Shown here in pieces: positions 1,071-27,488 of a stretch of 39,153 nucleotides of DNA. Every line of letters begins with the position of its first letter. Position 1 is the stretch's first letter. The DNA comes from a virus: IMG/VR virus record IMGVR_UViG_3300044542_000221. One strand, 5' to 3'. The position numbers were made by a program, and so were the translations under genes. The notes below the pieces were generated by a model, which worked only from the letters and a program-made list of their open reading frames with translations, made no database searches and was not told where the DNA came from.

Positions 1071-1081
1071 GAGGTGATGCA

Positions 1082-1258: not shown

Positions 1259-1264
1259 AAATAA

Positions 1265-3983: not shown

Positions 3984-4025
3984 AAATTTAGTCTTTTTTA
4001 ATACAAGAAATTAGGAGGGTCACAT

Positions 4026-5225: not shown

Positions 5226-5257
5226 CGCCTGACGGTATCACATTAAGTCAAAAGACA

Positions 5258-5485: not shown

Positions 5486-5496
5486 GGGGAATATAA

Positions 5497-6911: not shown

Positions 6912-6948
6912 AGCCTATTTTTATGCGAAAAATCAAGGAGGAAACAAA

Positions 6949-7545: not shown

Positions 7546-7643
7546 GACCAGTTCTAGTGCTTAGTTCGTTTTAAGTTAATAGAGTCGCCTATGAAATACA
7601 CAATAAACGCGCATGTGTTGGCGGCCAATATTAGGAGGAAAAC

Positions 7644-8143: not shown

Positions 8144-8160
8144 ATGAAAGGAGGATCTAA

Positions 8161-13001: not shown

Positions 13002-16000
13002 GCGTACCGGTTTTATATGAAGCGAATGCTACTGATTTTTTTAATAAAGGATTAGGAACACTCCCTGATGCACTAACAGCTGTAGTAACGGAAGAGCGGA
13101 ATGGAGAGTTCATTTTTGAGATGGCCTATCCCGCCGATGGAGCTAGAGCTGATTTACTTGAAAATAATCGAATAATCAAAGTAGACGCTGGTCATGTTTT
13201 AACGGATCAGCGTTTTGTTATCAAAAAAGTCACTCCACAAATGAATGAAGATGGCAAGATTTACATTGATGTATATGCAGAACATATCTCATATATCACT
13301 AATGATTTAGCTTTAAAACCAAGTGTTAATGTTAGTGGATCAGCTAATGATGCTATGCAACAATGGCAAAAAGCTATTATTGATAGTAATGAAATAACTG
13401 CTGATTCAGATATCTCAACTAATAATTCAACGACTTGGACAATTGATAAAGTGCAAAGCGCTAGACTTGCTCTTGGCGGTGTTGACGGATCCATTTTGGA
13501 TGTATGGGGTGGCGAATATCTTTTTGATAACCTCCATATTAGCTTGAGAAAGCAACGAGGAAGCTCAGCTAATACCTTGCTAGCGTATGGTCGCAATATC
13601 ACAAGTTTTCAACAAGAAGAAAATGTTGAGGATACTTACACATCAATTTATCCTTACGCAACTTTAAACTCGGTAAGTGGAGATACTTCATCTCTCTATA
13701 CAATTGATAATTATGTAGTTGACAGTCAGTATGTTGGCAATTATCCCAGCAGAAAAATTTTGCCAGTTGATTTCAGCAGCAACTTTGAAAATGTCAAAGT
13801 TGGGACTAAGGCAAGTGATGCAAATGATAGCGATACTACTGTTTATATGACAGTAGCTGAAGTTCAATCACAATTGAAAGCCTTAGCTCAGCAATATATT
13901 ACTAATAATGATGTTGGCATTCCCACTGTTTCAATTAGCGTTTCATTCGTGGATTTATCTAAGACGAGTAACTATGCTGATGTAGCACCACTTGAGCAAT
14001 TGGATTTGTGTGATATTGTGCCCGTTAGATTTACTAAATTAGGCATTGATACGACTGCTAAAGTGACTCATGCTGAATGGAATGTATTGACGGATTCATA
14101 TGACAAAATTGAATTAGGTAGTATTACAGCAACATTAGGTCAGACGCTAAACACGCTAACAACAGTTGCTCAAGCAGCCAAGCAGGTAGCACAAGATGCG
14201 CAAAATAATGCCACAATTGCATGGCAGTCGGCTGATGGAAAAACTACTACTTTTAAAGGGAGCAGCTCTCAGGATTTCCCAACTGCACAGCATATTGGAG
14301 ATTTATATTGGCGAGAAAATGGTGATACTACTGAGGTATATATTTGGGATGGCTCAGAGTGGGCGTTTCAATTTTCGAATAAAACTGGCCAAAACATTAG
14401 TGAAGTTGTCGATAAAGCCATGTCCGAAGCAGATACAGCTAAGCAGAATGCTAATGCTGCGGTTGAAACTGGGAATCAAGCATTAACTAAAGCACAATCA
14501 GCTATTGATACAGCTAATGCAGCAGCAGAGAATGCCAGCACAGCAAATGCTAATGCAAGCGCTGCTATAAGCAATGCAGCAACTGCTATTCAACAAGTTC
14601 AAAGCGCAGCAAGTGATGCAACCTCTGCTACAAACATTGCTAATGCTGTTAAGCAAGATGTTACTACTCTAAAAGATGGCTCGACTATGACAATTGCTGA
14701 ACTAGAGAGTGGTTTAGCAGTAAAAATTACTAAAGATGATATGAACACAGCTTTACAGCCATATGCGACACAATCTTGGACTAGTACAGAGATTTCTGCA
14801 ACTGCTGATGAAATTAACAGCAGTATAGCTTCTGTTAAGAAAACAGCTGATGGGAATACTACAGATGTTACTAGTTTAAAGCAGCGCGCTGACGGATTTG
14901 ATACATCAATAAGCAATTTAAGTACCAATAAAGCTGACCAGACTTGGACTACAAATCAAATCCAAGCTAGTGCTGCAGGACTTAATGCCACGATTACTAG
15001 TGTTCAGACACAAGTTAATAATTCTGCTGTTGGGACTAATATTCTGACCGGTACTAGTTCGACAAACAGCACTACGATTTCAGGTACTGGTTGGTATACC
15101 TTATCTTCAGCATCAAATAGTATGAATAGTCTGTTAAAGCCTAATACTGTTTATACTTATTCTATTAACGTACTATCTGCAACGTGGAATTGTTACCCTG
15201 AAATACAAGAATTTGATAGCAATGGTAATTGGCTGGATAATACTAGTGGTCAACCTAGTATGAGCACTGGATTACGGTCTGTTACATTCACTACGTCTGC
15301 TAATGCTGCAACATGGCGGTTTCATATAGTACTACAAAATCCATCAACCACACAAACAATTGTATGGAATTCTGAAAAAGCAGAACTTGGCTCTCATGCT
15401 ACTGATTGGTCTGCTAACCCCACAGATAATGCAACGGTTACATCGGTTACTAGTTTGTCAGTTACAGTTGATGGACTGCAAACGACAGTCTCTAAAAAAG
15501 TTGATAATGACACTTACCAAACACAAATCCAGCAACTTTCTGACAACATCAATCTGCGTGTTCAGAAAAACGATGTAATTAATCAGATTAACGTCAGCTC
15601 GGAATCAATCCTGATCGCCGGCAACAAAGTCCACATCACCGGGTCAACCACGATAGACAACGCTGTAATCAAGTCAGCAATGATTGATTCAATCTCCGCA
15701 GATAAAATCACGGCTGGCACGCTTAATGCGGCTAACGTTAACGTGATTAACTTGAATGCAAACAATATCAGTAGTGGCACACTAACAGGAGTATCTTTTC
15801 ACCAGTCTAGTTCAGGTCATGACACCTGGATAGATGGTAATGGTGTCCATGATTATGATGGCTCAGGAAATAATGCGTGGATACAGAAAGGAACATTGCA
15901 GGTCTATGATAAAAACGGCGATGGTTTTTTCATGGACAGTGGTAAGTTAGAACTTACAAGTCAATATCTCTGGCAACAGGGACAGTCCGTTAAATACGGA

Positions 16001-16843
16001 TTAATAAAATTAGATGACGATATTCTTGCATTAGGAAAAGCAGGAATGCACATTCAGGGATATAACGGACTTAGACTTGATACAGGTCATTCCATGTTCG
16101 ATGGTCTAACGGGTGCACTCGATGATAATTACACGGGGGCAGCTATAAATTTATCAGATAATGGTCAAATTGCAATAGGTAGTTATGCAGAGACATGGCT
16201 TAGTGCTGGTGCTCCGTATACTATGGCCGATAATAGTTCTCTGACTCAGAAGCCTAATATTTATATTGGGACAGCCATGTGGGATGATCGCTCAACTGTT
16301 GGACGTGGGCAGAATATTATTATGCAAGCTAATGGCATAATACTACAAACTCATGGTGAAATAAAACTTAAACCAAATAATGGTGACCTCTGGCTTGGTT
16401 ATGCTCGTATTAACACTGGTAGTGATACAAACACCTGGTATTCAGGGCCAACTGGCACAGCATGGTGGTTTAGAACTTATGGTGGTGACATGGCGACCAT
16501 TCACGTTCAGTCCGTTGCTCAATCATCATTGTTAAGCTTAAAAACAAATCTTAACAAGTTAGATCCAGCTAAAGCATTGGCAACATTAACAAATACAGAT
16601 ATATGCAGTTACAATTACAAATCTGATTTAAAAAATGGAATATCTAAAACCTATGCAACAGCGGTTATCGATGATGTTAATGATAAGCCACAGTATAATA
16701 CGCCATATGATTTCATTAGTGCTGACGGAACCGGACGTGACGATGGAACTATTTTAGGATATGCAGTTGCATCTATCCAAGAACTAAATAGTAAAATAAC
16801 TAGTCTCGAAACGGAAATCAAACAATTAAAAGGAGCAGCTTAA
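12983..16843 (+). CDS. Tail-associated lysin-like (Tal) protein fused to a fibre/receptor-binding region, with a C-terminal S74 intramolecular chaperone domain
   Basis: The N-terminus (PVLYEANATDFFNKGLG) is like phage minor structural/Tal proteins. The middle has Ala-rich coiled coil and a CBM-like module. The C-terminus SSLLSLKTNL..ICSYNYK..ILGYAVASIQELN..LETEIKQLK is S74-like. An alternative GTG start at 12998 gives a GTGA overlap with Dit. Confidence 0.85.
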   Translation: MEGENVSVPVLYEANATDFFNKGLGTLPDALTAVVTEERNGEFIFEMAYPADGARADLLENNRIIKVDAGHVLTDQRFVIKKVTPQMNEDGKIYIDVYAEHISYITNDLALKPSVNVSGSANDAMQQWQKAIIDSNEITADSDISTNNSTTWTIDKVQSARLALGGVDGSILDVWGGEYLFDNLHISLRKQRGSSANTLLAYGRNITSFQQEENVEDTYTSIYPYATLNSVSGDTSSLYTIDNYVVDSQYVGNYPSRKILPVDFSSNFENVKVGTKASDANDSDTTVYMTVAEVQSQLKALAQQYITNNDVGIPTVSISVSFVDLSKTSNYADVAPLEQLDLCDIVPVRFTKLGIDTTAKVTHAEWNVLTDSYDKIELGSITATLGQTLNTLTTVAQAAKQVAQDAQNNATIAWQSADGKTTTFKGSSSQDFPTAQHIGDLYWRENGDTTEVYIWDGSEWAFQFSNKTGQNISEVVDKAMSEADTAKQNANAAVETGNQALTKAQSAIDTANAAAENASTANANASAAISNAATAIQQVQSAASDATSATNIANAVKQDVTTLKDGSTMTIAELESGLAVKITKDDMNTALQPYATQSWTSTEISATADEINSSIASVKKTADGNTTDVTSLKQRADGFDTSISNLSTNKADQTWTTNQIQASAAGLNATITSVQTQVNNSAVGTNILTGTSSTNSTTISGTGWYTLSSASNSMNSLLKPNTVYTYSINVLSATWNCYPEIQEFDSNGNWLDNTSGQPSMSTGLRSVTFTTSANAATWRFHIVLQNPSTTQTIVWNSEKAELGSHATDWSANPTDNATVTSVTSLSVTVDGLQTTVSKKVDNDTYQTQIQQLSDNINLRVQKNDVINQINVSSESILIAGNKVHITGSTTIDNAVIKSAMIDSISADKITAGTLNAANVNVINLNANNISSGTLTGVSFHQSSSGHDTWIDGNGVHDYDGSGNNAWIQKGTLQVYDKNGDGFFMDSGKLELTSQYLWQQGQSVKYGLIKLDDDILALGKAGMHIQGYNGLRLDTGHSMFDGLTGALDDNYTGAAINLSDNGQIAIGSYAETWLSAGAPYTMADNSSLTQKPNIYIGTAMWDDRSTVGRGQNIIMQANGIILQTHGEIKLKPNNGDLWLGYARINTGSDTNTWYSGPTGTAWWFRTYGGDMATIHVQSVAQSSLLSLKTNLNKLDPAKALATLTNTDICSYNYKSDLKNGISKTYATAVIDDVNDKPQYNTPYDFISADGTGRDDGTILGYAVASIQELNSKITSLETEIKQLKGAA

Positions 16844-16844
16844 A

Positions 16845-17282
16845 ATGACAAAAATAATTAAATTACAAAATGCAGATTTAGTACCAGTAGGGAACTTTTT
16901 AGGAAAACTAAAACTTAAAGGAAAGGCAAGCCGTGGACGTACTAAGTTGATTAAGTTACTGGAAGCTAAAAATAAAGAATACAACGAGGATCGCGAAGAA
17001 ATTCGTGATCCTTATTTTGAACACGATGATAAAGGCGAACGGGTAACAAAAGATAATGCTTATGTGCTGAAAGACTCAACGAAAGGAGCTGATTTAAACA
17101 AGGAATTAGTAGCTTTAGCAAAAGAAGAAGCAGTCGTTGAGTTTACGGAATATTCAGAAAAATTTCAGGCGCTGTATGACGCGCTCAATGCTTATCCATA
17201 TGAACTAGCTGATGCAGATGCAGTGTTGTACGACTTAGTCTTAGATGAGTTAGAAAACAATTTTGAAAAGGAGAATGATTAA
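16845..17282 (+). CDS. Hypothetical protein (145 aa) downstream of the tail fibre
   Basis: ATG lies 1 nt after the Tal stop. The protein is charged and soluble. I recognise no motif with confidence. Confidence 0.6.
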   Translation: MTKIIKLQNADLVPVGNFLGKLKLKGKASRGRTKLIKLLEAKNKEYNEDREEIRDPYFEHDDKGERVTKDNAYVLKDSTKGADLNKELVALAKEEAVVEFTEYSEKFQALYDALNAYPYELADADAVLYDLVLDELENNFEKEND

Positions 17283-17284
17283 CC

Positions 17285-17515
17285 ATGGAAATTAAATTAA
17301 ACAGGCTTTCATATCAAATTGACAATGACGGTAACACCTCGGGAGTTTCAGTTGGCTTAAACGGTTCGGATAATGGCGATGCGGTTAGTGCTACTTTACA
17401 GATTACTTCTACTGATTTAGTAACAGGCAAGACTTTTGATGACATGACCAAAGCTGATTTTGAGACACTTGCTAAAACTAAATTGGCTAGTTTAACAGCA
17501 GTAAAGAGTGCTTAA
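17285..17515 (+). CDS. Hypothetical protein (76 aa)
   Basis: Tightly packed after 16845..17282 with RBS GGAGAA. No recognisable motif. Confidence 0.55.
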   Translation: MEIKLNRLSYQIDNDGNTSGVSVGLNGSDNGDAVSATLQITSTDLVTGKTFDDMTKADFETLAKTKLASLTAVKSA

Positions 17516-17617
17516 TATAAAAATGAAATTTTTTATCAGAATTAAAAATGCATTGTTGATGTGCTTGCCGTTTTGGGTAGCGCTATTTTTATTGTCAAAA
17601 TTAGTATAAGTAGGTGA

Positions 17618-17914
17618 TTGAATGTGCATAGAATTTTAGGACTTGGTTGGGACGAATGGGCATCGATTATTGTTATCATTTCGACAATTTTCGGTGCCTT
17701 TTCGTACACTGGAAAAAGTATGTTAAAGCGTTACGTTAAGGAGCCAATGGATGGTATTCGAGATGATTTACAAAAGTCACACAAGATGCAACAAAAGAAT
17801 ATCGATGCCCTTGAAAAACGTGAAGCTCAACAAGATAAATTGCTTGATCAGCATGACAAAATGTTGCTTAAGCACGATTTGAAAATTAATAATTTGGAGG
17901 AAAAATACAAATGA
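17618..17914 (+). CDS. Membrane-anchored coiled-coil protein of the lysis cassette (holin accessory?)
   Basis: An N-terminal TM (WASIIVIISTIFGAFSY) is followed by a charged helix. The likely true start is GTG 17624, 6 nt after AGGTGA. ATGA overlap with the next gene. Confidence 0.6.
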   Translation: MNVHRILGLGWDEWASIIVIISTIFGAFSYTGKSMLKRYVKEPMDGIRDDLQKSHKMQQKNIDALEKREAQQDKLLDQHDKMLLKHDLKINNLEEKYK

Positions 17915-18291
17915 AGGAATTTAAAAAGATGTTAGCAACTAACATTGGTAAGCCAAGCTTTTGGATTCAGTTGGCTACAGTTATGATTGTACTGTTTGTG
18001 CTGATTGCTAAATATGGTTTCCATGTGATTTTTAGCCAATCAGATGTTATTATTATTGGTCTTCTATTAAGTTCAGCATTAGGATTTGCAGGTAGTTTTA
18101 CTGGAAACAAAGCTTTAATTGAAGCTTCCAAATCAATTGATACATCTGGAATTGAAAAGAAGATTGAAGAGATTAGTGCGGTAGTCGATAAATTGACAGA
18201 AGTGAATACTGATTCTAAGGCTAATTCGCTTGGGATTGTTTTAGACAAAGATGGAAACATTGTTGGCACGGATACACCGAAGGAGGGCTAG
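17911..18291 (+). CDS. Putative holin
   Basis: 126 aa with two hydrophobic helices (FWIQLATVMIVLFVLIA; VIIIGLLLSSALGFAGSF) and a charged C-terminus. It lies immediately upstream of the endolysin. Confidence 0.7.
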   Translation: MKEFKKMLATNIGKPSFWIQLATVMIVLFVLIAKYGFHVIFSQSDVIIIGLLLSSALGFAGSFTGNKALIEASKSIDTSGIEKKIEEISAVVDKLTEVNTDSKANSLGIVLDKDGNIVGTDTPKEG

Positions 18292-18295
18292 TTCA

Positions 18296-19717
18296 ATGAA
18301 GAAACTTTTAACTGGGGTAGGAGCGGCGGCAGCTGCTCTTTTTTTATGCGCACAATTAGCTTCAGCAGATACGTTGCCAGTCTATGATATGTCAGAGTGG
18401 CAAGGTCAGAAAACTGAACAACAATTTAAAAATGTTAAATCGGAAGTTTCTGGATTGATTATCCGTCAACAATACGGATCAAACTACATTGACAAATACG
18501 CCTCATATAATACAAGCATGGCTGATAAAGTCGGTGTTCCTTATGGCCAATATGCTTATGCTCGTTTTGTCTCAGCCGACGATGCTCGTCAGGAAGCTAA
18601 GGACTTTTACAATCGGTCTGATAAGGATGCAAAGTTTTATGTATTAGACTTTGAAGAAAATACTGTTAAATATGGTACTACTCAAGCGGCAGTGCAAGCT
18701 TGGTTAGATGAGATGAAGTCATTGACTAATAAACACATAGTCTTTTATTCGTATCGAAACTTTGCTGACTTTTATGTTGGCCAAAGTTTAATTAATAAAT
18801 TTGACGGCTACTGGTTAGCAGCTTACCAGGGTGCTTGGCCAAACCCACGAAATTATGATATGTGGCAAAATAAAGATAATCAATCTTCGGTAGCGTTCGC
18901 GACCTCACTAGATAGTTCGTTAGTTGATACTAATCGGAAGTCTGTTAGCTGGTGGTTTGGGTCTGAAGCTAAAACGCAAAATAAGAAACTCAATAACGAC
19001 AGTCGCAAGCAAGGTTTTAATGTTGGCCAGAATGTCGTTTTAAAACAATCGGCAACAAAGTGGTATCAACCTAGAGTAAATATTGCCAGTTACGCAAAGG
19101 GTCAGACTTATACGATTAAAGACACGCAAGATTTAGTTTTGAGTAAGTCTAACCAAGCGGTTTTGCTTTATAAAGGAAGTACACCAATGGGTTGGGCATT
19201 AGCACAAGACGTACAGCTGACCAGTTCGAATGTATCTAGCCAGCATAGTAGAACATACACTGTTCGTTCTGGTGATTCCTGGTGGGAGATTGCTAACACG
19301 GTCGGAGTAGATATGAATTTGCTTGCTAAGCTCAACGGTAAAACAATTAATTCAGTTATTTATCCCAATCAGGTTTTGAAGATTTCAGGAACAATTGAAA
19401 ATAATGTTTCTAAGTCTGCTGCTAAAAACACTAAAGTTACTAGTTCGGTAGCTAACTCAGCTAATAGCCTACCGTCCGGAGTTCATGCACAATCAGGCTA
19501 TTTCACGCCTAATCAGCGCCTAATGGTCTGGCATGGGGCTGGATATAATGAAACCTACCAATATTACTACAGTGGCGAAACGATTAAATATGTTGGCTAT
19601 ATCGATAATTGGAGTGCTGGCTATCGTTATATCGTTTACAAAGGTGCTAGCGGTAATTGGTGCTACGTTGCTGACAGACACCTACAGCCTAACTACATGC
19701 TAGGATATGTTAGATAA
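18296..19717 (+). CDS. Endolysin: Sec signal peptide + GH25 muramidase + SH3b-like + LysM + C-terminal SH3b-like domain
   Basis: ATG 18296 lies behind AAGGAGGG. MKKLLTGVGAAAAALFLCAQLASA/DT looks like a signal peptide. GH25 is supported by YDMSEWQG...YAYARF...LDFEE. LysM is supported by YTVRSGDSWWEIANTVGVDMNLLAKLNG. Confidence 0.9.
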   Translation: MKKLLTGVGAAAAALFLCAQLASADTLPVYDMSEWQGQKTEQQFKNVKSEVSGLIIRQQYGSNYIDKYASYNTSMADKVGVPYGQYAYARFVSADDARQEAKDFYNRSDKDAKFYVLDFEENTVKYGTTQAAVQAWLDEMKSLTNKHIVFYSYRNFADFYVGQSLINKFDGYWLAAYQGAWPNPRNYDMWQNKDNQSSVAFATSLDSSLVDTNRKSVSWWFGSEAKTQNKKLNNDSRKQGFNVGQNVVLKQSATKWYQPRVNIASYAKGQTYTIKDTQDLVLSKSNQAVLLYKGSTPMGWALAQDVQLTSSNVSSQHSRTYTVRSGDSWWEIANTVGVDMNLLAKLNGKTINSVIYPNQVLKISGTIENNVSKSAAKNTKVTSSVANSANSLPSGVHAQSGYFTPNQRLMVWHGAGYNETYQYYYSGETIKYVGYIDNWSAGYRYIVYKGASGNWCYVADRHLQPNYMLGYVR

Positions 19718-19766
19718 TAACAGGGGCTTTTGCCCCAAACATAGTTGATCTACCACATTAAAGGTT

Positions 19767-19798
19767 CCACTTCCTTAATTGGAGGTGGGGATTTATTT
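19767..19798 (+). terminator. Rho-independent terminator of the late/lysis operon
   Basis: Stem ccacttcc/ggaggtgg (one G-U pair) with loop ttaatt, followed by the T-rich tail ggatttatttgt. Confidence 0.6.
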
Positions 19799-19837
19799 GT
19801 GTGTAAGAAAATAATTAAATGGAAAATATCCGAGTTC

Positions 19838-19866
19838 TTGGTAATACAAATTTGTAAAAATATGAT
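19838..19866 (+). promoter_or_regulatory. Sigma-70-like promoter of the M78/DUF4411 cassette
   Basis: TTGGTA-17 nt-TATGAT, located 45 nt upstream of ATG 19912. Confidence 0.5.
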
Positions 19867-19911
19867 AAGATTATGGCATAAGATTTGTCTAGTTTGAAAG
19901 GAGGCGAGACT

Positions 19912-21105
19912 ATGGCAATCGTACGAATAGATGTTAAACCAGAAATTCTTCATTGGGTTCAAGAAAATACTGGTACTGTATTGGATGGTGAATGGAGTGA
20001 CAGGATTAATAAATGGGTGACGAATGAAAAAAAGCCAACTCTGAACCAGCTTAAAAATTTAAGTAAAAAGGCTCAGGTTCCTTTTGGATATTTTTTCTTG
20101 GAAAGTACGCCTAAAGAAAATCTTCCTTTACTTAAATATAGAACTGTTGATAATGTTTATATAGAGAAGCCATCTAGGAACTTAATTGATACTATTCATG
20201 ATATGGAATTAAAGCAAAGTTGGCTTAGCGATTATCGCGAGAAAAATGATTACCCAGCTAGTCCTTTTTCGTGTGGATATAAGATGATTAGCAATTTGAC
20301 GCACAAAAATGATGAACAGATTGCTTCCGAAATTATGAGATCTCTTGGTATAAAATCCGGCTGGAATGTTGGCTTCAAGAACCGTGAAGGATTCAAATTT
20401 TTGCGAAAAAAACTCAATCGGGTTGGAGTTATTGTAATGTTTAGTGGTATGGTGGGCAATAATACACGTCGATTATTATCGCAAAGTGAATTTCGAGCAT
20501 TTGCTCTTAATGATACGTTTGCGCCACTGATTTTTATTAATTCGAATGATAGCTATAATGCAATGCTTTTTTCTCTTGTTCACGAGTTGACTCATATTTG
20601 GTACGGCACTTCTGAACTGTACAATGATGATTTTAAAGAAGAACAACAAATTTTAGATCTTAAAAATGAGCAGAAAATTAATCATATTAGTGAAGCAATT
20701 ATTTTTCCAAAACTTTTATTTACTGATGAATGGCAACAACAAAGTGGAGAGAAAATAATTGATAAAATAATTGCTGTCGCAAAACATTTTAATGCGAGTC
20801 CATTGTCAACGGGAATTCGAGCGTTTCATCTTGATCTCATTGAGCAAAATTCAATTGACCAGTTAAAAAAAGAATTAGATCGTGATTATCAATATAAAAA
20901 AAATAATAAAGAGGGTCAAAAAGATAACGGGGGTCCAACTTTTTATATAACAAAAGCTACTCAAATTGATTCATCTTTCACAAAAGATATCAAACGTGGG
21001 GTTATTGGCGGAGAATTAGAATTCAATAAAGCTTTTGAGTTGTTGGGTGTCAAAAACAGTACTGCTTTTGACAAACTTTTATCTAAAATAGAGGGAAAAG
21101 GGTAA
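19912..21105 (+). CDS. HTH (XRE-like) + ImmA/IrrE-family (M78, COG2856) zinc metallopeptidase fusion
   Basis: ATG 19912 lies behind AAAGGAGG. The N-terminal PTLNQLKNLSKKAQVPFGYFFL is HTH-like. The HEXXH motif is SLVHELTHIWYG. Confidence 0.85.
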   Translation: MAIVRIDVKPEILHWVQENTGTVLDGEWSDRINKWVTNEKKPTLNQLKNLSKKAQVPFGYFFLESTPKENLPLLKYRTVDNVYIEKPSRNLIDTIHDMELKQSWLSDYREKNDYPASPFSCGYKMISNLTHKNDEQIASEIMRSLGIKSGWNVGFKNREGFKFLRKKLNRVGVIVMFSGMVGNNTRRLLSQSEFRAFALNDTFAPLIFINSNDSYNAMLFSLVHELTHIWYGTSELYNDDFKEEQQILDLKNEQKINHISEAIIFPKLLFTDEWQQQSGEKIIDKIIAVAKHFNASPLSTGIRAFHLDLIEQNSIDQLKKELDRDYQYKKNNKEGQKDNGGPTFYITKATQIDSSFTKDIKRGVIGGELEFNKAFELLGVKNSTAFDKLLSKIEGKG

Positions 21106-21109
21106 GATA

Positions 21110-21655
21110 ATGAGTAGTAACACAAGTATGAAATCTAAATTTGTTATTGACAGTAACTCATTTGTTGAACCTTCTAGACTATATTATTCTATGTCCCGTT
21201 TTCCAAGCTATTGGGCATGGATAGAAGGATGTATCACAGGCGCATCAAAGTATATTATTATTCCAGGAGTGGTATATGATGAGCTGTCTGGGTCAAATGA
21301 TAACCTTTCACAATGGCTAGAGAGTACAATTAAACCATTTGTTTTTAGAAGCTATGAAACTAATCCAACTTATTTAACACAGTATGGGAAGATTATGAAC
21401 TACCTACAAAATTGTGGGTATTATGGTAACGCAGCAATTGCAAATTGGAGTCAAGAATGGAAAGCTGATCCGAAATTGATAGCGATGGCTGCAACATATG
21501 ATTGGAAAATCATTACTCGAGAGCAGCCAGCAGGTTATCTAAGTACAAAAAATAGGTCTAACAAAGAACCCAAAATTCCTGATGTTGCTTCAGCCATGGG
21601 TGTGGAATGTGTTTCACTTTTCGAGGTGGAAGAGGCGCTTAAACTTTCAATTTAG
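21110..21655 (+). CDS. DUF4411-like (PIN-like nuclease fold) protein
   Basis: 181 aa, 4 nt after the M78 stop. The N-terminus FVIDSNSFVEPSRLYY...FPSYWAWIE...IIPGVVYDEL...LSQWL matches my memory of the DUF4411 pattern. Confidence 0.7.
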   Translation: MSSNTSMKSKFVIDSNSFVEPSRLYYSMSRFPSYWAWIEGCITGASKYIIIPGVVYDELSGSNDNLSQWLESTIKPFVFRSYETNPTYLTQYGKIMNYLQNCGYYGNAAIANWSQEWKADPKLIAMAATYDWKIITREQPAGYLSTKNRSNKEPKIPDVASAMGVECVSLFEVEEALKLSI

Positions 21656-21704
21656 ACTTACTGTACATATATATTGTTTAGGATCAAGTAAATAAATTTA
21701 AAGC

Positions 21705-21733
21705 CTCATTCTTAATTGAGTGAGACTGTTTTT
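21705..21733 (+). terminator. Rho-independent terminator after the DUF4411 gene
   Basis: Stem ctcattc/gagtgag with loop ttaatt, then actgttttt. Confidence 0.6.
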
Positions 21734-21776
21734 ATTATAGGCATAAGTCTAATCGCCAGTTTCGGTTGGTATACAT

Positions 21777-21812
21777 AAAAGCCCACCCGATTAATTTCGG
21801 GTAGGCTTATTT
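21777..21812. terminator. Bidirectional-type terminator hairpin
   Basis: aaaa-gcccacccga-ttaatt-tcgggtaggc-ttattt. The core cccacccgattaatttcgg is 17/19 identical to 23464-23482. Confidence 0.5.
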
Positions 21813-21876
21813 AAGTAGGGTTGTAATTATCTACAAAATAAGCTAAAATATTAGTTGCATGTATATTGCATAGACT

Positions 21877-21912
21877 AAAAAGCCTATCTCATTTGAGGTA
21901 GGCTTATTTTTT
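21877..21912. terminator. Bidirectional-type terminator hairpin
   Basis: aaaa-agcctatctc-attt-gaggtaggct-tatttttt. It shares the 3' arm ggtaggcttattt with the hairpin at 21777. Confidence 0.6.
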
Positions 21913-22040
21913 ATGCGCATTCTAAGGTCACTTTCGTATTTCAGACGTGTAGTTATACGTGAAATCAAATTTGAGAGTGCAAAAAAATAAGCCAGCTACG
22001 CTGACTTAGAAAATATGCTATAATTAGTTGATTAAAAAAT

Positions 22041-22219
22041 GTTGTCTCGAAGTTGTCTAAAAGACTTGTAAGCATTGACTTTTAGGTATACTAAAATGCG
22101 CCACGTGGGAGTTCTGATAAGATTTTATAAGTCTTGATTACCTTTAAATCGGCATTTTAGCCCTGAATGAATCACTAATTGCTGTTAAAAAATATTATTT
22201 TGTTGTCCTCTTGTTGTCC
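22041..22219. other. Candidate attP region (arm-type repeats plus inverted repeat), 3' of int
   Basis: GTTGTC[T/C] occurs at 22041, 22052, 22202 and 22213, as two pairs each phased 11 bp. The inverted repeat aagactt/aagtctt lies at 22061-22067 and 22129-22135. The core cannot be defined without the host sequence. Confidence 0.3.
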
Positions 22220-23305
22220 TAGACTGTCCGTCAACTTCTCAATCCTATCATCAGATCGAGCTTTGTATTCAGCGATCAAGTAAGCATATTTTTCGGCAGT
22301 GATTGACATGTTAGAATGGCCTAGTCTTTTACTAATTGCATAAAGGCTGACACCTTTAAAGAGGAGATAGGCTACATGAGAATGTCTGAGAGAATGGAAG
22401 TGGAAGTTATTTTTTTGAATTTCACATTTTTCCATGATTGAATGTAAAGTCTTATTAACTGCATTAGAGCTTGGCAACTGTCTAGCCTTATTTTCAAAAA
22501 CCATCTTTGAGTTATTTATTTTTAATTGTTTTAAAAGATTAAGCAGGCTAGAACCAACTCGGATAATTCGATATGATGATTTAGTTTTAACAGATTTAAA
22601 ACCTCCGCCTGCATGATAGTCCCAAGACTTATTGATTGATATAGTATGCTGTTTAAAGTTAATATCTTTCCATGTGAGAGCCTGTATCTCTCCAAGTCTC
22701 ATTCCTGTATAGATAGCAGTTAAAATCATGTAGCGGCTAGTATATTGAGTATCTAATCCATCTTCAATGCCTTTTATTAATTTATTAATTTCAGCTACCG
22801 AAAGGTACTCAACTTTGAGTGTTCGTTTCTCGTCATATACAAGCTCAATACCCTGTGTAAAATCTTTTCTGATTATTTCATCAATCATAGCTGCTTTAAC
22901 ACAAGCACGAATTATATTATTTGTTTTTCTAACGGTATCTTTTGCGTGGTTCTTTCCGTAACTGTTAATAAAATGCTGGTATTGATTGCGAGTGATTGAT
23001 TTTAATTTTAAGTTTCCAAAATTTTTTTCAATTATATGTGATACATAAATGTACCGTTTCAGATTACTAGCTGCTACACGATTCTCTTTATAGGTTTTAT
23101 ACCAGTCGATGTAGTATTGGAGAAAAACAACATCGTGATGAGCTATGAGTGAACTATCATTTTGTGCTTCAATTTGAGCAGCGTAAACTCGAGCATCATT
23201 TTTAGTTTTGAACCCTGACTTAGAAGTTTGATGCAGGTTACCAGCTGGATCCCGTTTGGAAACTGTAACTTTCCAGCCACTGCTTAGTTTTCTAAAACTA
23301 GCCAT
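22175..23305 (-). CDS. int: Tyrosine integrase (site-specific recombinase, phage integrase family)
   Basis: Start at MASFRKLSSGW (ATG 23305) lies behind AAGGGAG. It has catalytic-type motifs ...GMRLGE..., HSLRHSHVAYLL and GHSNMSITAEKYAY. Confidence 0.92.
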   Translation of the reverse strand: MASFRKLSSGWKVTVSKRDPAGNLHQTSKSGFKTKNDARVYAAQIEAQNDSSLIAHHDVVFLQYYIDWYKTYKENRVAASNLKRYIYVSHIIEKNFGNLKLKSITRNQYQHFINSYGKNHAKDTVRKTNNIIRACVKAAMIDEIIRKDFTQGIELVYDEKRTLKVEYLSVAEINKLIKGIEDGLDTQYTSRYMILTAIYTGMRLGEIQALTWKDINFKQHTISINKSWDYHAGGGFKSVKTKSSYRIIRVGSSLLNLLKQLKINNSKMVFENKARQLPSSNAVNKTLHSIMEKCEIQKNNFHFHSLRHSHVAYLLFKGVSLYAISKRLGHSNMSITAEKYAYLIAEYKARSDDRIEKLTDSLGQQEDNKIIFFNSN

Positions 23306-23381
23306 TGAAAAAACTCCCTTCATAATATAAAATATGGATGTAAGGGCTGATTGTTCCTTACAAATTTAATAATTCTTTCTA

Positions 23382-23727
23382 AGCACACTTTATCTTCCCG
23401 GAGCGAGTGTGTTTTGTGATATAATATAGGTGGTTTGAAAAAACCACATTAAAAAAATCCCAACCCACCTAATTAATTTCGGAATTAGATGGGTTCTTTG
23501 TTATTTTGTGTTATAATACTGTGTGAGAATCTGTGGATTCTCTATCATATATGGGCACACTCAAACTTTTAATTAAGGGCGAGTGTTTTTGCATATAGGT
23601 GTATAATGTTAGTTGGGTAGGATTGCCTGCCTGCAGTACCCCCAAACAACACCCTATTATTATATTAGTAGGGTGCTTTTTAATGAGTAGAGCACTCAAA
23701 CTTTAGGTGGGGAGAGTGTGCTTTTTA
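23382..23727. repeat. Array of related hairpins interleaved with TATAAT boxes in the int-sie intergenic region
   Basis: Three related hairpins (gcacact..gagtgtg) lie at 23382-23413, 23557-23586 and 23691-23722. Two other hairpins lie at 23462-23495 and 23650-23675. TGnTATAAT or TATAAT boxes end at 23425, 23517 and 23607. Confidence 0.6.
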
Positions 23728-24357
23728 TTCAGCAATTTTATTATAAGATTCTGAAATTTGCTTATCGTATTTCTCAAAATTTGACCCAAAACTGTTATAG
23801 CTTCCACTTGGACTGCTAACCAGTTCTACTATATTTTTCATTTTGTAATATGCATCTTTATATTGGCTGTAATTAAGTTCACCTGTGTTATTGGCCTTTA
23901 AAAGTACTAAAAATCCTTCTAAATCATTCATATCACTTTTTAATTTGCTAATAGATTTATAATTTCTTTCAGCCGCAGCTGTGATTACTTTGTCAACGTT
24001 AAAATCGCTTTGATCATAGGATTCATCAATTTGATTTCCCCAATAATTATATTCGCTGTTACCGACATCCTCCGCTATATTTCCTGTAGAAGCGTACAAC
24101 TTGTTAAACTTAGAACTGTAATATTGGAACTCACGGTTTGCCTCTGCATGTTGCTTTTTTATCTCAAAATTAGCGCCATAAACGCTTATGCACGAAACAA
24201 CAAAAATAGTTCCACCAACAATTAATCCTAGTTTCCCAGTACGCTTCAAACTATCTTTTTTATTTCCAAAACCGACTATTAAAACTACGCCAAAACCAAT
24301 AGCCATCACGCTTGAAATGATAGCTGCAAAAAGCATTATAACGCCAAAAGTCTCCAT
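23725..24357 (-). CDS. Membrane protein (2 N-terminal TM + about 140-aa extracytoplasmic domain); candidate superinfection-exclusion protein
   Basis: ATG 24357 (METFGV) lies behind GGGGGA. TM helices are VIMLFAAIISSVMAIGFGVVLIV and LGLIVGGTIFVVSCISVY. Its position between int and cI is the classic Sie slot in LAB phages. Confidence 0.65.
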   Translation of the reverse strand: METFGVIMLFAAIISSVMAIGFGVVLIVGFGNKKDSLKRTGKLGLIVGGTIFVVSCISVYGANFEIKKQHAEANREFQYYSSKFNKLYASTGNIAEDVGNSEYNYWGNQIDESYDQSDFNVDKVITAAAERNYKSISKLKSDMNDLEGFLVLLKANNTGELNYSQYKDAYYKMKNIVELVSSPSGSYNSFGSNFEKYDKQISESYNKIAE

Positions 24358-24427
24358 TTTGGTTTCCCCCAATATATTTTTATAAGTATGTGTATCTAAA
24401 AAAGATTATAAATCATTATGTAAAAAT

Positions 24428-24504
24428 ATCCGAGTATGTGCTATATTTAACTCGGATACATTAAGCCTTAGCTCGTTGCCCTCCACAGCGATTGAGCTAG
24501 GGCT
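24428..24504 (-). terminator. Tandem hairpins downstream of cI
   Basis: The hairpins are agccttagctc...gagctagggct (24464-24504, overlapping the cI stop) and atccgagt...actcggat (24428-24457), the latter followed by attttta on the minus strand. Confidence 0.5.
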
Positions 24505-25177
24505 TATTTTTTTGCGTGATAACTTTTCCAATAACTCTTACATCTTGAGCTGGAAAAACCATATCATCATATTTATCATTGATTGACTTCAATCTGATTT
24601 TTCCATCTTCCCTATATATCTTCTTACAAGTAACTCCTACATCTTTTATTGAAACGATTACTATCTGTCCATCATCGTCAGGAACAGGCTGATAATGTAC
24701 GAACACTTGTGAGCCTTTCATGAGAAGTGGTTCCATTGAATCGCCAGCAATTGTTATAACCTCATCAGCACCGCGCGGCACTTCATTTCTTACTACTATT
24801 TCTTGTTGAGCATCTTCATAATCTCCATCAATAGGAGCACCAGCGGCAGATGAACGTCCTGAGCGCATATACCCGTTTTGCTCAGACAATTGATCTTCTG
24901 CAAAACTATAAACACGTTTCTTCCTTAAAGGCTCAAGTTTATCATATATAGAAAGAATATTATCATCTGAATTAATTCCTAAAAGATATCTTGGATCTAA
25001 ATTTAATGCTTTAGCAAATGCTTCCGTTTTATTAACAGGAAACTCTCTTGAACCATTTTCATATCTGGATAAAGCGGCTTTTGAAAGGCCAACTTTTTCT
25101 CCTAATTCATCTAACGACATTTTTTTACTTTTTCTTGAGTCGGTAATTATTTTTAATATTTCTTTACTTGATCTCAT
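24497..25177 (-). CDS. CI-like repressor: XRE HTH + S24 (LexA-like) self-cleaving peptidase domain
   Basis: ATG 25177 (MRSSKEIL) lies behind AGGAGGTGA. The HTH is MSLDELGEKVGLSKAALSRYENG. The S24 motif is IAGDSMEPLL with a downstream Lys. Confidence 0.9.
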   Translation of the reverse strand: MRSSKEILKIITDSRKSKKMSLDELGEKVGLSKAALSRYENGSREFPVNKTEAFAKALNLDPRYLLGINSDDNILSIYDKLEPLRKKRVYSFAEDQLSEQNGYMRSGRSSAAGAPIDGDYEDAQQEIVVRNEVPRGADEVITIAGDSMEPLLMKGSQVFVHYQPVPDDDGQIVIVSIKDVGVTCKKIYREDGKIRLKSINDKYDDMVFPAQDVRVIGKVITQKNKP

Positions 25178-25203
25178 TTTTGTATCACCTCCTAACAATC
25201 TTT

Positions 25204-25232
25204 ATTATATACTCGTTGTTACCACAAGTAAA
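25204..25232 (-). promoter_or_regulatory. Leftward (cI) promoter
   Basis: The minus strand reads TTTACT-17 nt-TATAAT. The -35 overlaps operator O1. Confidence 0.6.
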
Positions 25233-25233
25233 C
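25218..25233. promoter_or_regulatory. Operator O1
   Basis: gttaccacaagtaaac. Its reverse complement matches O2 at 13/16 positions. Half-sites are GTTAC/GTAAC-like. Confidence 0.6.
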
Positions 25234-25258
25234 AAAATATATTAAATAAAATAAAAAT

Positions 25259-25274
25259 GTTGACAAGTGGTAAC
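25259..25274. promoter_or_regulatory. Operator O2
   Basis: gttgacaagtggtaac, overlapping the -35 and spacer of the rightward promoter. Confidence 0.6.
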
Positions 25275-25288
25275 AAATGATTTATAGT
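25260..25288 (+). promoter_or_regulatory. Rightward (cro/early) promoter
   Basis: TTGACA-17 nt-TATAGT, located 27 nt upstream of the cro ATG, which has RBS AAAGGAGGAAAG. Confidence 0.7.
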
Positions 25289-25314
25289 AAAAATGTGGAA
25301 AGGAGGAAAGTGAA

Positions 25315-25554
25315 ATGGAAATCAATTTAAACAGAATTAAAGCAGAAAGAATTGCCGCAGGTGTTTCACAGCAACAAATGGCAAAGACTTTAGGAATTTC
25401 CCGTGGAGCTTATTGGAAACGAGAAAACGGTAAAACCCAAATAGGAGTTGAAGAACTAGCCAAGATTGCTGAGACAGTTGGGATTGACAAAAATAATATT
25501 GGAATTTTTTTTAAATTCAGTGTTACCGAATGTCAACATTTAGTCAAAGAATAG
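25315..25554 (+). CDS. Cro-like XRE-family HTH regulator
   Basis: 79 aa, divergent from cI. The HTH is VSQQQMAKTLGISRGAYWKRENG. Confidence 0.85.
   Translation: MEINLNRIKAERIAAGVSQQQMAKTLGISRGAYWKRENGKTQIGVEELAKIAETVGIDKNNIGIFFKFSVTECQHLVKE
25522..25537. promoter_or_regulatory. Distal operator O3 inside the 3' end of cro
   Basis: gttaccgaatgtcaac matches the reverse complement of O2 (gttaccacttgtcaac) at 13/16 positions, with both hexamer arms identical. Confidence 0.5.
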
Positions 25555-25565
25555 GAGGAACAATT

Positions 25566-25673
25566 ATGGAACCAGAAAAAAAGACAGATTGGGAATTTAT
25601 AATTTTAACAATTAATTTCTTTCTTTCGCTAATTGCTTTAGGTTTTTCCACTTATCTTTTGATTCAACAGTAA
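25566..25673 (+). CDS. Small single-TM protein (35 aa)
   Basis: ATG lies behind the strong RBS AGGAGGAA. Sequence is MEPEKKTDWEFIILTINFFLSLIALGFSTYLLIQQ. Confidence 0.45.
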   Translation: MEPEKKTDWEFIILTINFFLSLIALGFSTYLLIQQ

Positions 25674-25789
25674 GTATTTCTTGACCATTAGATGTCTTTA
25701 AGTTTAAAGAGAGAATGAAAGCTGAAACTGACAATATTATTACCTCGATTCGCTGGGATAACTAATTATACAACGAAAGGAAGATTTAA

Positions 25790-25939
25790 ATGACAAAACA
25801 AAATAGAAAAGAATCCACGTCTGCAACACGTGAATCCTCAGTAAAAAACATTAAGGCTTCAAAAATTACCAGTGGAACTGTAAATGCTAATGAACTTGAC
25901 TTCATCAATATTAATAGTAATCATGAAAGTCTTTCTTAG
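25790..25939 (+). CDS. Possible small protein (49 aa)
   Basis: ATG lies behind AAAGGAAG. The 3' end overlaps the convergent minus-strand gene by 29 nt. Composition is hydrophilic. Confidence 0.3.
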   Translation: MTKQNRKESTSATRESSVKNIKASKITSGTVNANELDFININSNHESLS

Positions 25940-26159
25940 CATTAGCTAAGTTAGCATGGTAGAAGCCTTTAGAATCTTTCATGAGTTCATGGCTGAAATC
26001 CATATCTTTAAATTTACCATCTGGAGTTTTGGTATAAATCATAGTGAACCCGTTGTCTAACTCAACCTTGATAACATCATTTCCACTATCCTCATGTCTA
26101 GCCCAACGCTGCTTGATTGAAGCACCGTCAGCATCAAAATTGAATGTGCCTACATTCAT
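25911..26159 (-). CDS. Hypothetical 82-aa protein, reverse-oriented accessory (moron) gene
   Basis: ATG 26159 (MNVGTFNFD) lies 8 nt after GAGGTGA. The track start GTG 26171 sits inside that RBS. It has its own promoter element at 26188-26202. Confidence 0.6.
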   Translation of the reverse strand: MNVGTFNFDADGASIKQRWARHEDSGNDVIKVELDNGFTMIYTKTPDGKFKDMDFSHELMKDSKGFYHANLANAKKDFHDYY

Positions 26160-26187
26160 AATATTTTTCACCTCACTTTCTAGTGAG

Positions 26188-26202
26188 AATTATATACCAA
26201 AA
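26188..26202 (-). promoter_or_regulatory. Minus-strand extended -10 promoter element, copy 1 of an exact 15-bp repeat
   Basis: The minus strand reads TTTTGGTATATAATT (TGgTATATAAT). It is identical to 27124-27138 and lies just upstream of the minus-gene RBS. Confidence 0.55.
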
Positions 26203-26215
26203 GGAGTGAAACAAA

Positions 26216-26398
26216 ATGGAAAGACTTTCAAAAGAAAAAGTTCTACTGAATCTTCAAAAAAATAACCCTTATCGTGTAGGAGTTGAAAAAATTATTCACA
26301 TAACAACAAGGATTGGAGATGGAACAGAAACTAATCCAGTAAGGCTTATCGAACATTACTACGATATGACGGGTCAATTACTATTTGAATCTGAATGA
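26216..26398 (+). CDS. Hypothetical 60-aa protein
   Basis: ATG lies behind AAAAGGAGTGA. The 3' end overlaps the convergent DUF4145 gene by 25 nt. Confidence 0.5.
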   Translation: MERLSKEKVLLNLQKNNPYRVGVEKIIHITTRIGDGTETNPVRLIEHYYDMTGQLLFESE

Positions 26399-27105
26399 TA
26401 AGCTCTTCCGGCTGGGGGATTTGAAATTTGCAATTTTACAAGAACGGAATTAATGAAAATTTCTAAGTAAGTTTTAACTATATTTAGATGGTCTTCTGGA
26501 TTGAAATCGTCAGGTCTGCTCCAATGAGTAAAGTCATTTCCAACTGCTCTAACTACGTCTGATGAGGCAAAAGCTTCATTATCATCACTCAAGAAATGAG
26601 CAATTGCATCATTCAATGAATAACGAGCAATTTTGCTTTTATCTTCACCTGAATACTCTAACGCCCAATCCTTTATTAATACTTCTAGGCTAGCACGATA
26701 TCCCATGCCAGCTAAGTCTATATGACCGTTTTGTTCTGCATCAAAAGCCGAATTGTATATTTCAATAAATCTTGGAGAACATTTTTGAAGTAGACTATCA
26801 AAAACTCTAATTGAATTACTTGGATACTGTGCAAGAAGCTTCCAAGGCTTAGTATTTTCATCATTTTTTGATAAGGCTTCGACTATTATAAAGCTCCAGT
26901 GCTCGCATGCTAAACACATACAGCTTATATATGATACTGGACCGTCTGTGAAGTTTCGATATCCCTCAATAAAAAATTGAGGATTGTTTGAAACACCACA
27001 ACTAGGACAAAATTTAGGTATTTCAATAGATTTGTCTTTCATATAGGTGCCTACAGAAGACGGCAGTTTCTGAACTCTAGTTTTTTTCAACACAGTCACT
27101 CCCAT
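26374..27105 (-). CDS. Zinc-ribbon + DUF4145 (HEPN-like) domain protein, reverse-oriented accessory (moron) gene
   Basis: Two Cys pairs are present, CPSC..CMCLAC. Patterns YPSNSIRVF, GMGYRASLEVLIKDW and VRAVGNDFTHW match the DUF4145 architecture (R..GN...H). The start is uncertain (ATG 27105 or TTG 27090). Confidence 0.8.
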   Translation of the reverse strand: MGVTVLKKTRVQKLPSSVGTYMKDKSIEIPKFCPSCGVSNNPQFFIEGYRNFTDGPVSYISCMCLACEHWSFIIVEALSKNDENTKPWKLLAQYPSNSIRVFDSLLQKCSPRFIEIYNSAFDAEQNGHIDLAGMGYRASLEVLIKDWALEYSGEDKSKIARYSLNDAIAHFLSDDNEAFASSDVVRAVGNDFTHWSRPDDFNPEDHLNIVKTYLEIFINSVLVKLQISNPPAGRAYHSDSNSN

Positions 27106-27123
27106 AAAAAATATTATCACCTA

Positions 27124-27138
27124 AATTATATACCAAAA
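27124..27138 (-). promoter_or_regulatory. Minus-strand extended -10 promoter element, copy 2
   Basis: Exact repeat of aattatataccaaaa. The adjacent leader (aggtgataatatt) also resembles that of copy 1 (aggtgaaaaatatt). Confidence 0.55.
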
Positions 27139-27161
27139 ATTTTATGAAAGGGGATGTAAAT

Positions 27162-27488
27162 ATGCCCACATTAATTAACGAAACAGCAATTGCAGACCTA
27201 ATCAAAGAGCAAGTCAATAAGCTTACTGATCAGCAATTGCTAAGCAAACTTGATGGCATCACTTGGTCAACTGACCAGTTCCGTAAAGCTTGCTGTGGTG
27301 GTAAAGATAGTGGCTGGGTTACAACTTTCGTGCTAGACAAGTTTCTTGATGAAATTGACTACTATCGTGGTGGTTGGCTGATACGTGGTGGTCGTGGAAA
27401 GGCAAATATCATTTTCGCCAAACCTGCTTGTGAGTGGATGGAGGAAAATCGTAACCGAATCGATTGGGAGGCGAAGCTACCAAAATGA
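27162..27488 (+). CDS. DUF771-like protein (possible excisionase-type DNA-binding protein)
   Basis: ATG 27162 lies behind AAAGGGGA. The pattern ITWSTDQFRKACCGGKDSGWV..FVLDKFLDEID..GGW...G.GKANIIFAKPACEWMEEN resembles DUF771 proteins of LAB phages. Confidence 0.6.
   Translation: MPTLINETAIADLIKEQVNKLTDQQLLSKLDGITWSTDQFRKACCGGKDSGWVTTFVLDKFLDEIDYYRGGWLIRGGRGKANIIFAKPACEWMEENRNRIDWEAKLPK

Follow-up and report, generated by a model that had tools for sequence, protein, structure and literature searches.

Which system does the small two-gene cassette between the endolysin and integrase genes of a temperate phage encode, and what might it do for a lysogen? The cassette occupies positions 19838-21733 of IMG/VR virus record IMGVR_UViG_3300044542_000221, a stretch of 39,153 nucleotides called the window below. 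A first, sequence-only reading had described it as an M78 (ImmA/IrrE-type) metallopeptidase gene followed by a DUF4411 PIN-like gene, and had proposed a protease-gated nuclease toxin for use against superinfecting phages or for addiction. The cassette is probably a self-contained, horizontally mobile type II toxin-antitoxin (TA) operon of the VapBC52 type, a branch of the ImmA-protease-antitoxin or RosmerTA-like group. A temperate phage of the Lactobacillaceae type would carry it as a moron between lysin and integrase, where self-cleavage of the antitoxin would release a tRNA-cutting toxin that aborts superinfection, penalises prophage loss, or both.

The mechanism had been taken to be uncharacterised, which did not hold: predictions of the pairing date from 2009 and 2017, and the structure and biochemistry of a homolog were worked out in 2026 (PMC13273310). 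This phage-borne cassette is therefore a new member of a family already known. In 2009, Makarova et al. predicted that COG2856-Xre fusions, with Rv2515c named, form TA-like operons with PIN and RelE toxins, and that such operons are frequent in phages (PMC2701414); the sequence-only reading had pointed to a prediction of this kind for COG2856 genes. DUF4411 genes downstream of fused DUF955 (COG2856)-helix-turn-helix (HTH) genes were described by Matelska et al. in 2017 (PMC5499597). The name RosmerTA for the Zn-peptidase-antitoxin systems comes from Millman et al. (2022), who cited the earlier predictions, and the NetFlax analysis placed the ImmA/RmrA antitoxin as a hub (node D25) with many toxins, PIN-like ones included (Ernits et al. 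2023, PMC10440598). In S. pneumoniae, RipAB is a system of the Rosmer type whose toxin acts on DnaN. The solved homolog is the Rv2514c/Rv2515c pair of M. tuberculosis, named VapBC52 by Singh et al. (NAR 2026; PDB 9vzy and 9vzz; PMC13273310).

The two proteins and their VapBC52 homologs

The two genes lie on the plus strand, 4 nt apart, and carry the motifs on which the argument rests:

19897..19905, plus strand: Shine-Dalgarno sequence GAAAGGAGG, 6 nt 5' of the gene 1 ATG
19912..21105, plus strand: gene 1, the putative antitoxin, 397 residues, VapB52 homolog, RmrA-like
20137..20145, plus strand: Y76-R77-T78 of gene 1, aligned with the "FR motif" F75-R76 of VapB52
20581..20595, plus strand: HELTH zinc-binding and catalytic motif of gene 1 (H224, E225, H228), within VHELTHIWYG
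20620..20625, plus strand: Y237-N238 of gene 1, aligned with the "cysteine switch" C229-D230 of VapB52
20668-20670, plus strand: E253 of gene 1, candidate third zinc ligand, aligned with E245 of VapB52
21110..21655, plus strand: gene 2, the putative toxin, 181 residues, predicted PIN-fold nuclease of the DUF4411 family, homologous to the tRNase VapC52
21149-21151, plus strand: D14 of gene 2, within FVIDSNSF, one of four invariant acidic residues (D14, E58, D120, E138)

Both genes, their spacing and the two quoted motifs had been picked out by the sequence-only reading and are present in the translations. While the ATG at 19912 is the one preceded by the ribosome-binding sequence, the open reading frame (ORF) listing extends gene 1 to a TTG at 19885. 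The two family assignments made by that reading exceeded the Pfam cut-offs: gene 1 scored 32.6 bits with Peptidase_M78 (E 8.1e-8; cut-off 22), and gene 2 scored 99 bits with DUF4411 (E 3.2e-28; cut-off 23.5). Peptidase_M78 was also matched by all 118 gene 1 relatives, in which H224, E225, H228, and E253 are invariant. In PHROGs, the gene 1 protein was assigned to phrog_2439, a "transcriptional regulator" (1.9e-35), and the gene 2 protein to phrog_11126 of unknown function (4.4e-26). PADLOC matched gene 1 with twelve RmrA models, of which the top one scored 39.8 bits (E 6.3e-11) over residues 30-330, as well as with PDC-M69B and capP (1.2e-5). An assignment of gene 1 as an equivalog of RipB was rejected, its score against the NCBIfam "spr1629 family repressor/antitoxin" model being 23.8 bits where the cut-off is 335.

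The AlphaFold model of gene 1 (predicted local distance difference test, pLDDT, 85.6) is divided into a helical N-terminal domain (NTD) of residues 1-72, a low-confidence linker of residues 73-83, an alpha/beta M78 peptidase with a helical subdomain of about residues 89-335 that includes a low-confidence loop at 236-248, and a C-terminal domain (CTD) of four helices at residues 344-396 that resembles the CTD of VapB52. Its best structural matches were CapP (7t5t), IrrE (3dte), and PprI bound to single-stranded DNA (ssDNA; 8sln). The modelled N-terminus matched the HTH proteins C.Csp231I and BswR, which are also the structural neighbours reported for the VapB52 NTD (PMC13273310). The earlier description of this end as HTH-like thus agrees with the predicted structure and with homology to VapB52, the two lines that suggest it, while no Pfam HTH model matched any of the 118 family members.

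Gene 2, described before as PIN-like, is predicted to encode a DUF4411 nuclease of the PIN fold whose four-acid active site is intact. Its AlphaFold2 model (pLDDT 94.9, predicted template modelling score 0.90) was compared with the PDB by Foldseek, and the top 15 matches were VapC and FitB toxins with a probability of 1.00 and template modelling scores of 0.55-0.65, normalised by target. VapC proteins of Salmonella, Shigella, Rickettsia, and M. tuberculosis were among them, and PIN-like HARP RNase P followed after the VapC/FitB matches. D14, E58, D120, and E138 are invariant among 110 DUF4411 sequences and form the four-acid signature of PIN nucleases; as with the invariant zinc-site residues of gene 1, this marks an active site under selection. 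These residues align with D6, E48, D99, and E117 of VapC52, itself a DUF4411-type PIN tRNase, in which they are the catalytic residues that were mutated (PMC13273310).

Homology to the M. tuberculosis pair extends over the length of both proteins. The gene 1 family profile matched VapB52 (9vzy_A) at E 1.8e-27, covering 8-359 of 388 profile positions and residues 2-362 of 393 in the chain, and the DUF4411 profile matched VapC52 (9vzy_D) at E 1.7e-17. With the single window proteins as queries, the values were 1.7e-5 for gene 1 and 3.2e-3 for gene 2. VapB52 is a protein of 415 residues with a toxin-binding HTH-like NTD, an IrrE/M78 peptidase, and a four-helix CTD by which the toxin's active site is blocked (PMC13273310). 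Its zinc-site residues H216, E217, H220, and E245 align with H224, E225, H228, and E253 of gene 1. A three-domain gene 1 protein with intact zinc ligands is therefore paired with an intact PIN nuclease, and the homology of the two to VapB52 and VapC52 spans their length.

Two further positions bear on how the antitoxin would be controlled. The DFRRL segment of VapB52, which holds the FR motif of the NTD-peptidase linker proposed by the authors as the cleavage site (PMC13273310), aligns with [Y/F]76-R77 of gene 1. Position 76 is Tyr in 82, Phe in 34, and His in 2 of the 118 relatives, R77 and T78 are invariant, and the triplet sits in the linker 73-83 of the model, where pLDDT falls below 50. 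The second position is that of C229, the cysteine switch that occludes the zinc site of VapB52 at rest (PMC13273310). Here it is Tyr in 83, Phe in 33, and Leu in 2 of the relatives, followed by an invariant Asn238, and no Cys occurs anywhere in loop 229-252 across the 118 sequences of the gene 1 clade.

Linkage, decay and mobility of the pair

Co-occurrence of the two families far beyond chance, on which the sequence-only reading had let its proposal depend, was found in both bacterial and viral loci. Among GTDB species representatives, a pattern scan with the gene 1 alignment yielded 304 confirmed loci; the best 80 were examined, and 78 could be evaluated downstream. A DUF4411 ORF lay directly 3' of the gene 1 homolog in 76 of these 78, most commonly with gaps of -4, -7, or -1 nt, so that the frames overlap or abut. 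This genome-wide count is conditioned on gene 1, and the check from the toxin side consisted of eight viral loci and five look-ups. All eight evaluable IMG/VR viral loci found via DUF4411 carried an M78 gene of about 380 residues immediately 5', and the same arrangement was seen in Staphylococcus petrasii, Listeria monocytogenes, and Bifidobacterium pseudolongum. The pair was also kept in the closest non-phage relative (P0002). The M78 and DUF4411 genes are thus an obligate module.

The two exceptions among the 78 are orphan gene 1 homologs at L046 (4902-6173) and L072 (4182-6167). An unrelated ORF of 353 residues follows 3' of the homolog in L046, and the listed ORF of L072 extends 5' to 661 residues in high-G+C sequence, which may be an artefact of ORF calling or a fusion.

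While gene 1 was intact, the adjacent DUF4411 gene was truncated, split, or fragmentary in at least seven loci (L010, L014, L048, L063, L081, L088, and L089). Decay of this kind is the pattern expected if the DUF4411 protein is the toxic partner. The degraded genes lie downstream of position ~6150 in each locus, and an ORF resembling an insertion sequence comes next in L014.

Nucleotide similarity of ~70% to Lentilactobacillus, Companilactobacillus, and metagenomic relatives was confined to positions 19894-21656 of the window, a span that starts at the ribosome-binding site (19894-19897) and ends with the stop codon of gene 2. Neighbouring genes varied widely: the 138 flanking ORFs at the 78 loci matched 167 Pfam families, and the most common one, phage integrase, occurred in only 4 of the 138. 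No conserved third gene flanked the pair at the 78 loci, and HTH_3 was found in only 3 of the 138 flanking ORFs. The slots taken up in viruses differ as well: in the viral contigs L001 and L002 the pair stands beside an integrase, and in L008 and L009 it is found upstream of three ORFs of about 176-226, 437-440, and 531-578 residues. The size of the latter three, taken alone, suggests a terminase/portal block. Since slots and neighbours differ and similarity is limited to the two ORFs, the pair is best described as a self-contained mobile two-gene unit.

Defence genes (MADS, type I restriction-modification, DpdF, PifA, Hhe, and retron PRTase) were scattered among the neighbours, with no background rate for comparison. 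In Bifidobacterium pseudolongum (L098:2369-5800), the module lies in a small TA island with a YoeB toxin gene on one side, a Fic and SocA/Panacea pair on the other, and a DNA methylase nearby. The DUF4411 family as a whole is large, with 6,393 clusters at 50% identity reaching E <= 1e-3, while few deposited phage genomes have the module, which was present in only three INPHARED records.

Setting of the cassette in the phage genome

The cassette follows the lysis module and its hairpins, is flanked by the endolysin gene, and has the integrase on its other side, in agreement with the placement given by the sequence-only reading. Its surroundings are as follows:

18251..19717, plus strand: endolysin with GH25 and LysM domains, left flank of the cassette
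19723-19736: G+C-rich palindrome or hairpin 3' of the endolysin stop, the second upstream hairpin
19765..19790, plus strand: terminator-like hairpin 3' of the endolysin stop, a 10-pair stem followed by ATTTATTTGT
19838..19866, plus strand: promoter candidate TTGGTA-17-TATGAT, sigma-70-like, 9/12 consensus match
19865..19885, plus strand: direct repeats ATAAGATT, two exact 8-nt copies 13 nt apart, overlapping the -10 hexamer and just downstream of it
21705..21733, plus strand: weak terminator-like hairpin (hairpin 21705-21724), 7 pairs of which 3 are G-C, with a T-rich tail
21779-21808, both strands: stronger hairpin 3' of the cassette
21880-21905, plus strand: stronger hairpin 3' of the cassette
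21988-22008: fourth hairpin in the cassette-integrase gap
22175..23323, minus strand: tyrosine integrase, right flank of the cassette
24497..25198, minus strand: CI repressor, LexA-like (HTH_3 and Peptidase_S24), beyond the integrase

A promoter and a terminator of its own had been claimed for the cassette. The promoter sequence is present at 19838-19866 and would be a plausible cassette promoter, but 24 promoter-like sites occurred in the region against 19.3 +/- 5.2 in shuffled sequence. With no such excess, the site is statistically indistinguishable from chance and is not evidence by itself. The hairpin and T-rich tail of the claimed terminator do exist, yet the structure is weak and is followed by stronger ones. 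Terminator-like sites were enriched in the region (10 against 2.8 +/- 1.9) and clustered in both intergenic gaps around the cassette. The ATAAGATT repeats are a possible operator for the HTH-like NTD, although repeats of this kind weigh little in AT-rich DNA.

The attachment site attP presumably lies within the 21705-22175 gap, and neither an attP core site nor a tRNA fragment was identified in the 520-bp cassette-integrase gap. No tRNA genes were found by ARAGORN anywhere in the window, so the phage brings no tRNA targets of its own. With 31-36% G+C, the cassette is only a little poorer in these bases than the structural genes (35-42%) and does not differ from the lysogeny module, so the value is uninformative.

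The listed ATG of the endolysin ORF (18251-19717, plus strand) overlaps the preceding ORF 17911..18291. Read from Met16 (about 18296), the protein begins with MKKLLTGVGAAAAALFLCAQLASA, which is signal-peptide-like. Together with the GH25 and LysM domains, this suggests an endolysin secreted by a Sec-type or signal-anchor-release route.

Between the integrase and CI genes, positions 23725-24372 on the minus strand encode a protein of 215 residues with a hydrophobic N-terminal segment. It matched no Pfam family, and its only PHROGs match was a weak one to phrog_24226 of unknown function. Because its position is typical of lysogen-expressed exclusion genes, the prophage may have a second accessory gene here. 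A gene of 248 residues (26374-27120, minus strand) stands inside the otherwise rightward early region; it had no Pfam match and was assigned to phrog_1305, a "DNA binding protein", at 6.3e-34. The early region also encodes a DUF771 protein and a putative HNH nuclease (HNHc_6) at 27144-27488 and 27996-28745 on the plus strand.

Two contigs from other sequencing runs, L090 (SRR16377032) and L091 (SRR16377030), were considered as a second cassette-bearing phage variant and rejected, since they were 100% identical to positions 19267-27167 and 19257-21860 of the window, respectively. This phage, together with its cassette, is therefore present in more than one sample. A megablast search with the cassette and with positions 1-19700 of the window against INPHARED phages returned no match.

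Mechanism, role and comparison with known systems

The steps proposed for the module are carried over by homology from the M. tuberculosis complex, in which one VapB52 is bound to two VapC52 and ssDNA leads to HExxH-dependent self-cleavage of VapB52 and release of its NTD (PMC13273310). One antitoxin would clamp a toxin dimer, with the NTD on the outside of the dimer and the CTD over an active site. A nucleic-acid danger signal, which is ssDNA for VapB52 and, in a similar way, for CapP and PprI, would activate the peptidase, which would then sever the linker between itself and the NTD at the conserved [Y/F]-R motif. Once the NTD is lost, the toxin would be free to cleave tRNA in the anticodon or variable loop and so arrest translation. 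In a lysogen expressing the module, a superinfecting phage would be aborted, loss of the prophage would be penalised, or both. Such an abortive or addictive role is suggested by the position of the moron between the lysis-side and integrase-side hairpins and by RosmerTA relatives of the same antitoxin architecture that defend against phages. The proposal of a protease-gated nuclease TA system thus stands in so far as a PIN nuclease appears to be held by an M78-bearing protein, while cleavage of a separate partner does not.

Several points weigh against this account. Every mechanistic step is borrowed from a homolog that is remote at the level of the single sequences. Tyr or Phe replaces the cysteine switch of VapB52 and CapP, so auto-inhibition, and possibly the trigger, may differ. 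Gene 2 had no PADLOC match at E <= 1, and its 110 relatives had no RmrT match at E <= 0.01. Protection of M. smegmatis from phage D29 was obtained with the overexpressed toxin alone and not with the co-expressed pair (PMC13273310), so that defence by an intact module of the VapBC52 type stays a proposal. As the phage CI carries an S24 domain, ssDNA would also be present during the DNA-damage (SOS-type) induction of the prophage itself, which poses a problem of self-targeting. The promoter and terminator are predictions at the level of consensus only, and with the defence genes so scattered, no enrichment of defence islands around the pair is claimed.

The same TA module might have been selected for addiction, prophage stabilisation, or selfish persistence with no anti-phage function at all. 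Conservation of only two ORFs between hosts, the heterogeneous neighbourhoods, decay of toxin genes beside persisting antitoxins, the D29 result, and rarity in deposited phage genomes all agree with such a role. However, RosmerTA systems of the same antitoxin architecture do defend against phages, and some relatives adjoin restriction-modification, MADS, PifA, retron-type, or other TA genes. The moron slot between lysin and integrase is, moreover, a common home of lysogen-expressed exclusion genes. A role confined to addiction, stabilisation, or persistence is considered unlikely.

It is likewise improbable, to a similar degree, that the architecture is shared with VapBC52 while the gating is not, with the peptidase held by Tyr237/Asn238 or by bound toxin, for instance, and activated by a phage protein or another signal in place of ssDNA. 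The aromatic residue where VapB52 has C229, the invariant N238, and the low confidence of loop 236-248 leave room for this, and the very narrow phage specificity of RosmerTA fits specific triggers better than generic ssDNA. Against it, M78 proteases of the IrrE/PprI type respond to ssDNA and are among the structural matches (8sln), and the remaining catalytic core and the cleavage motif are conserved.

A more speculative extension, to which only a slim chance is given, is that the Firmicutes/phage clade swapped the cysteine switch for the aromatic-Asn pair as a different latch, perhaps with a different trigger. In a prophage whose induction is driven by DNA damage, the module would then have to tell the replication intermediates of a competitor from those of its own phage, or it could be co-fired deliberately at induction to shut off the host or act against competitors. 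Either wiring, if true, would be a previously undescribed link of a self-cleaving antitoxin to the life cycle of a temperate phage.

A three-component system, in which the M78 protease cuts a separate Xre-type repressor or antitoxin as in ImmA-ImmR and CapP-CapH, or even acts on the lysogeny switch of the phage, is very improbable: the 2009 and 2017 predictions for COG2856-Xre fusions beside PIN toxins and the partner cleavage by each of the relatives ImmA, IrrE, and CapP speak for it, but the 78 loci held no conserved third gene, the pair occurs in non-phage contexts without a repressor neighbour, VapB52 cleaves itself, and the phage CI is encoded 3 kb away on the opposite strand with its own S24 autoprotease domain. 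For the same reasons, the analogy to ImmA/ImmR and IrrE/DdrO drawn by the sequence-only reading is not upheld, the closer parallel being VapB52, an antitoxin that cleaves itself. With an HTH and S24 CI repressor of its own, the phage has no need of an ImmA-type switch. Gene 1 as an anti-repressor of the lysogeny switch was rejected on this ground and on its tie to DUF4411 genes outside phages.

Read as a self-cleaving VapBC52-type operon, the cassette leaves the general picture of how such systems work unchanged, and its value lies elsewhere. It would show that modules of the VapBC52 type are transported by temperate phages of lactic acid bacteria in the form of a moron that runs from promoter to terminator. 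PADLOC models would miss the cassette since they include no model of its toxin, a gap in defence and TA annotation that concerns the large DUF4411 family and the 304 loci of the gene 1 type. The phage is also a natural setting for the question left open by the M. tuberculosis study: whether protection against phage is conferred by the intact module or only by overexpressed toxin. The missing cysteine switch poses a concrete question of structure and function; it bears on regulatory detail and not on homology.

Among known systems, VapBC52 is the closest in kind. Both are bicistronic operons with the antitoxin first, and both encode a DUF4411 PIN toxin with the same four acids and an antitoxin of ~400 residues with the same three-domain order, the HExxH and Glu ligands, an aromatic-Arg motif between NTD and peptidase, and a CTD of four helices. 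In contrast, the homology is remote, the cysteine-switch residue is Tyr or Phe throughout the clade of the window protein, the cleavage motif reads Y-R-T here and F-R-R in VapB52, and the toxin is about 20 residues longer. While VapBC52 lies on an actinobacterial chromosome, the present module belongs to a temperate phage of low-G+C Firmicutes known from sequence. RosmerTA shares the N-terminal HTH-type domain joined to an ImmA/M78 zinc peptidase, which is reflected in the twelve RmrA matches of gene 1, as well as an antitoxin hub with swappable toxins (PIN-like ones included) and members encoded by both phages and bacteria. It differs in that gene 2 matches no RmrT model, so that PADLOC 2.0 would not call the cassette, and in that the experimentally tested RmrT toxins described in the consulted papers are of other kinds, either membrane-depolarising (RmrT of Gordonia phage Kita) or DnaN-targeting (RipA).

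The M78 fold, the catalytic motif, and a normally silent protease that is turned on by a danger signal are shared with CapP/CapH of the cyclic-oligonucleotide-based antiphage signalling systems (CBASS), IrrE/PprI-DdrO of Deinococcus, and ImmA/ImmR of ICEBs1. Those proteases cut a separate repressor and thereby induce transcription, whereas homology to VapB52 predicts that protease and substrate are one polypeptide here and that the output is the release of a pre-made toxin. Unlike CapP/CapH and ImmA/ImmR, no adjacent partner repressor is conserved beside gene 1. With canonical VapBC, the cassette has in common a PIN-fold toxin for which tRNA cleavage would be expected by analogy. The antitoxin of those systems is a small protein (8-13 kDa) of the ribbon-helix-helix, AbrB, or PHD type whose C-terminal tail enters each active site, while the upstream protein of the cassette is a 45-kDa, enzyme-containing protein of 397 residues whose solved homolog binds its toxin 1:2.

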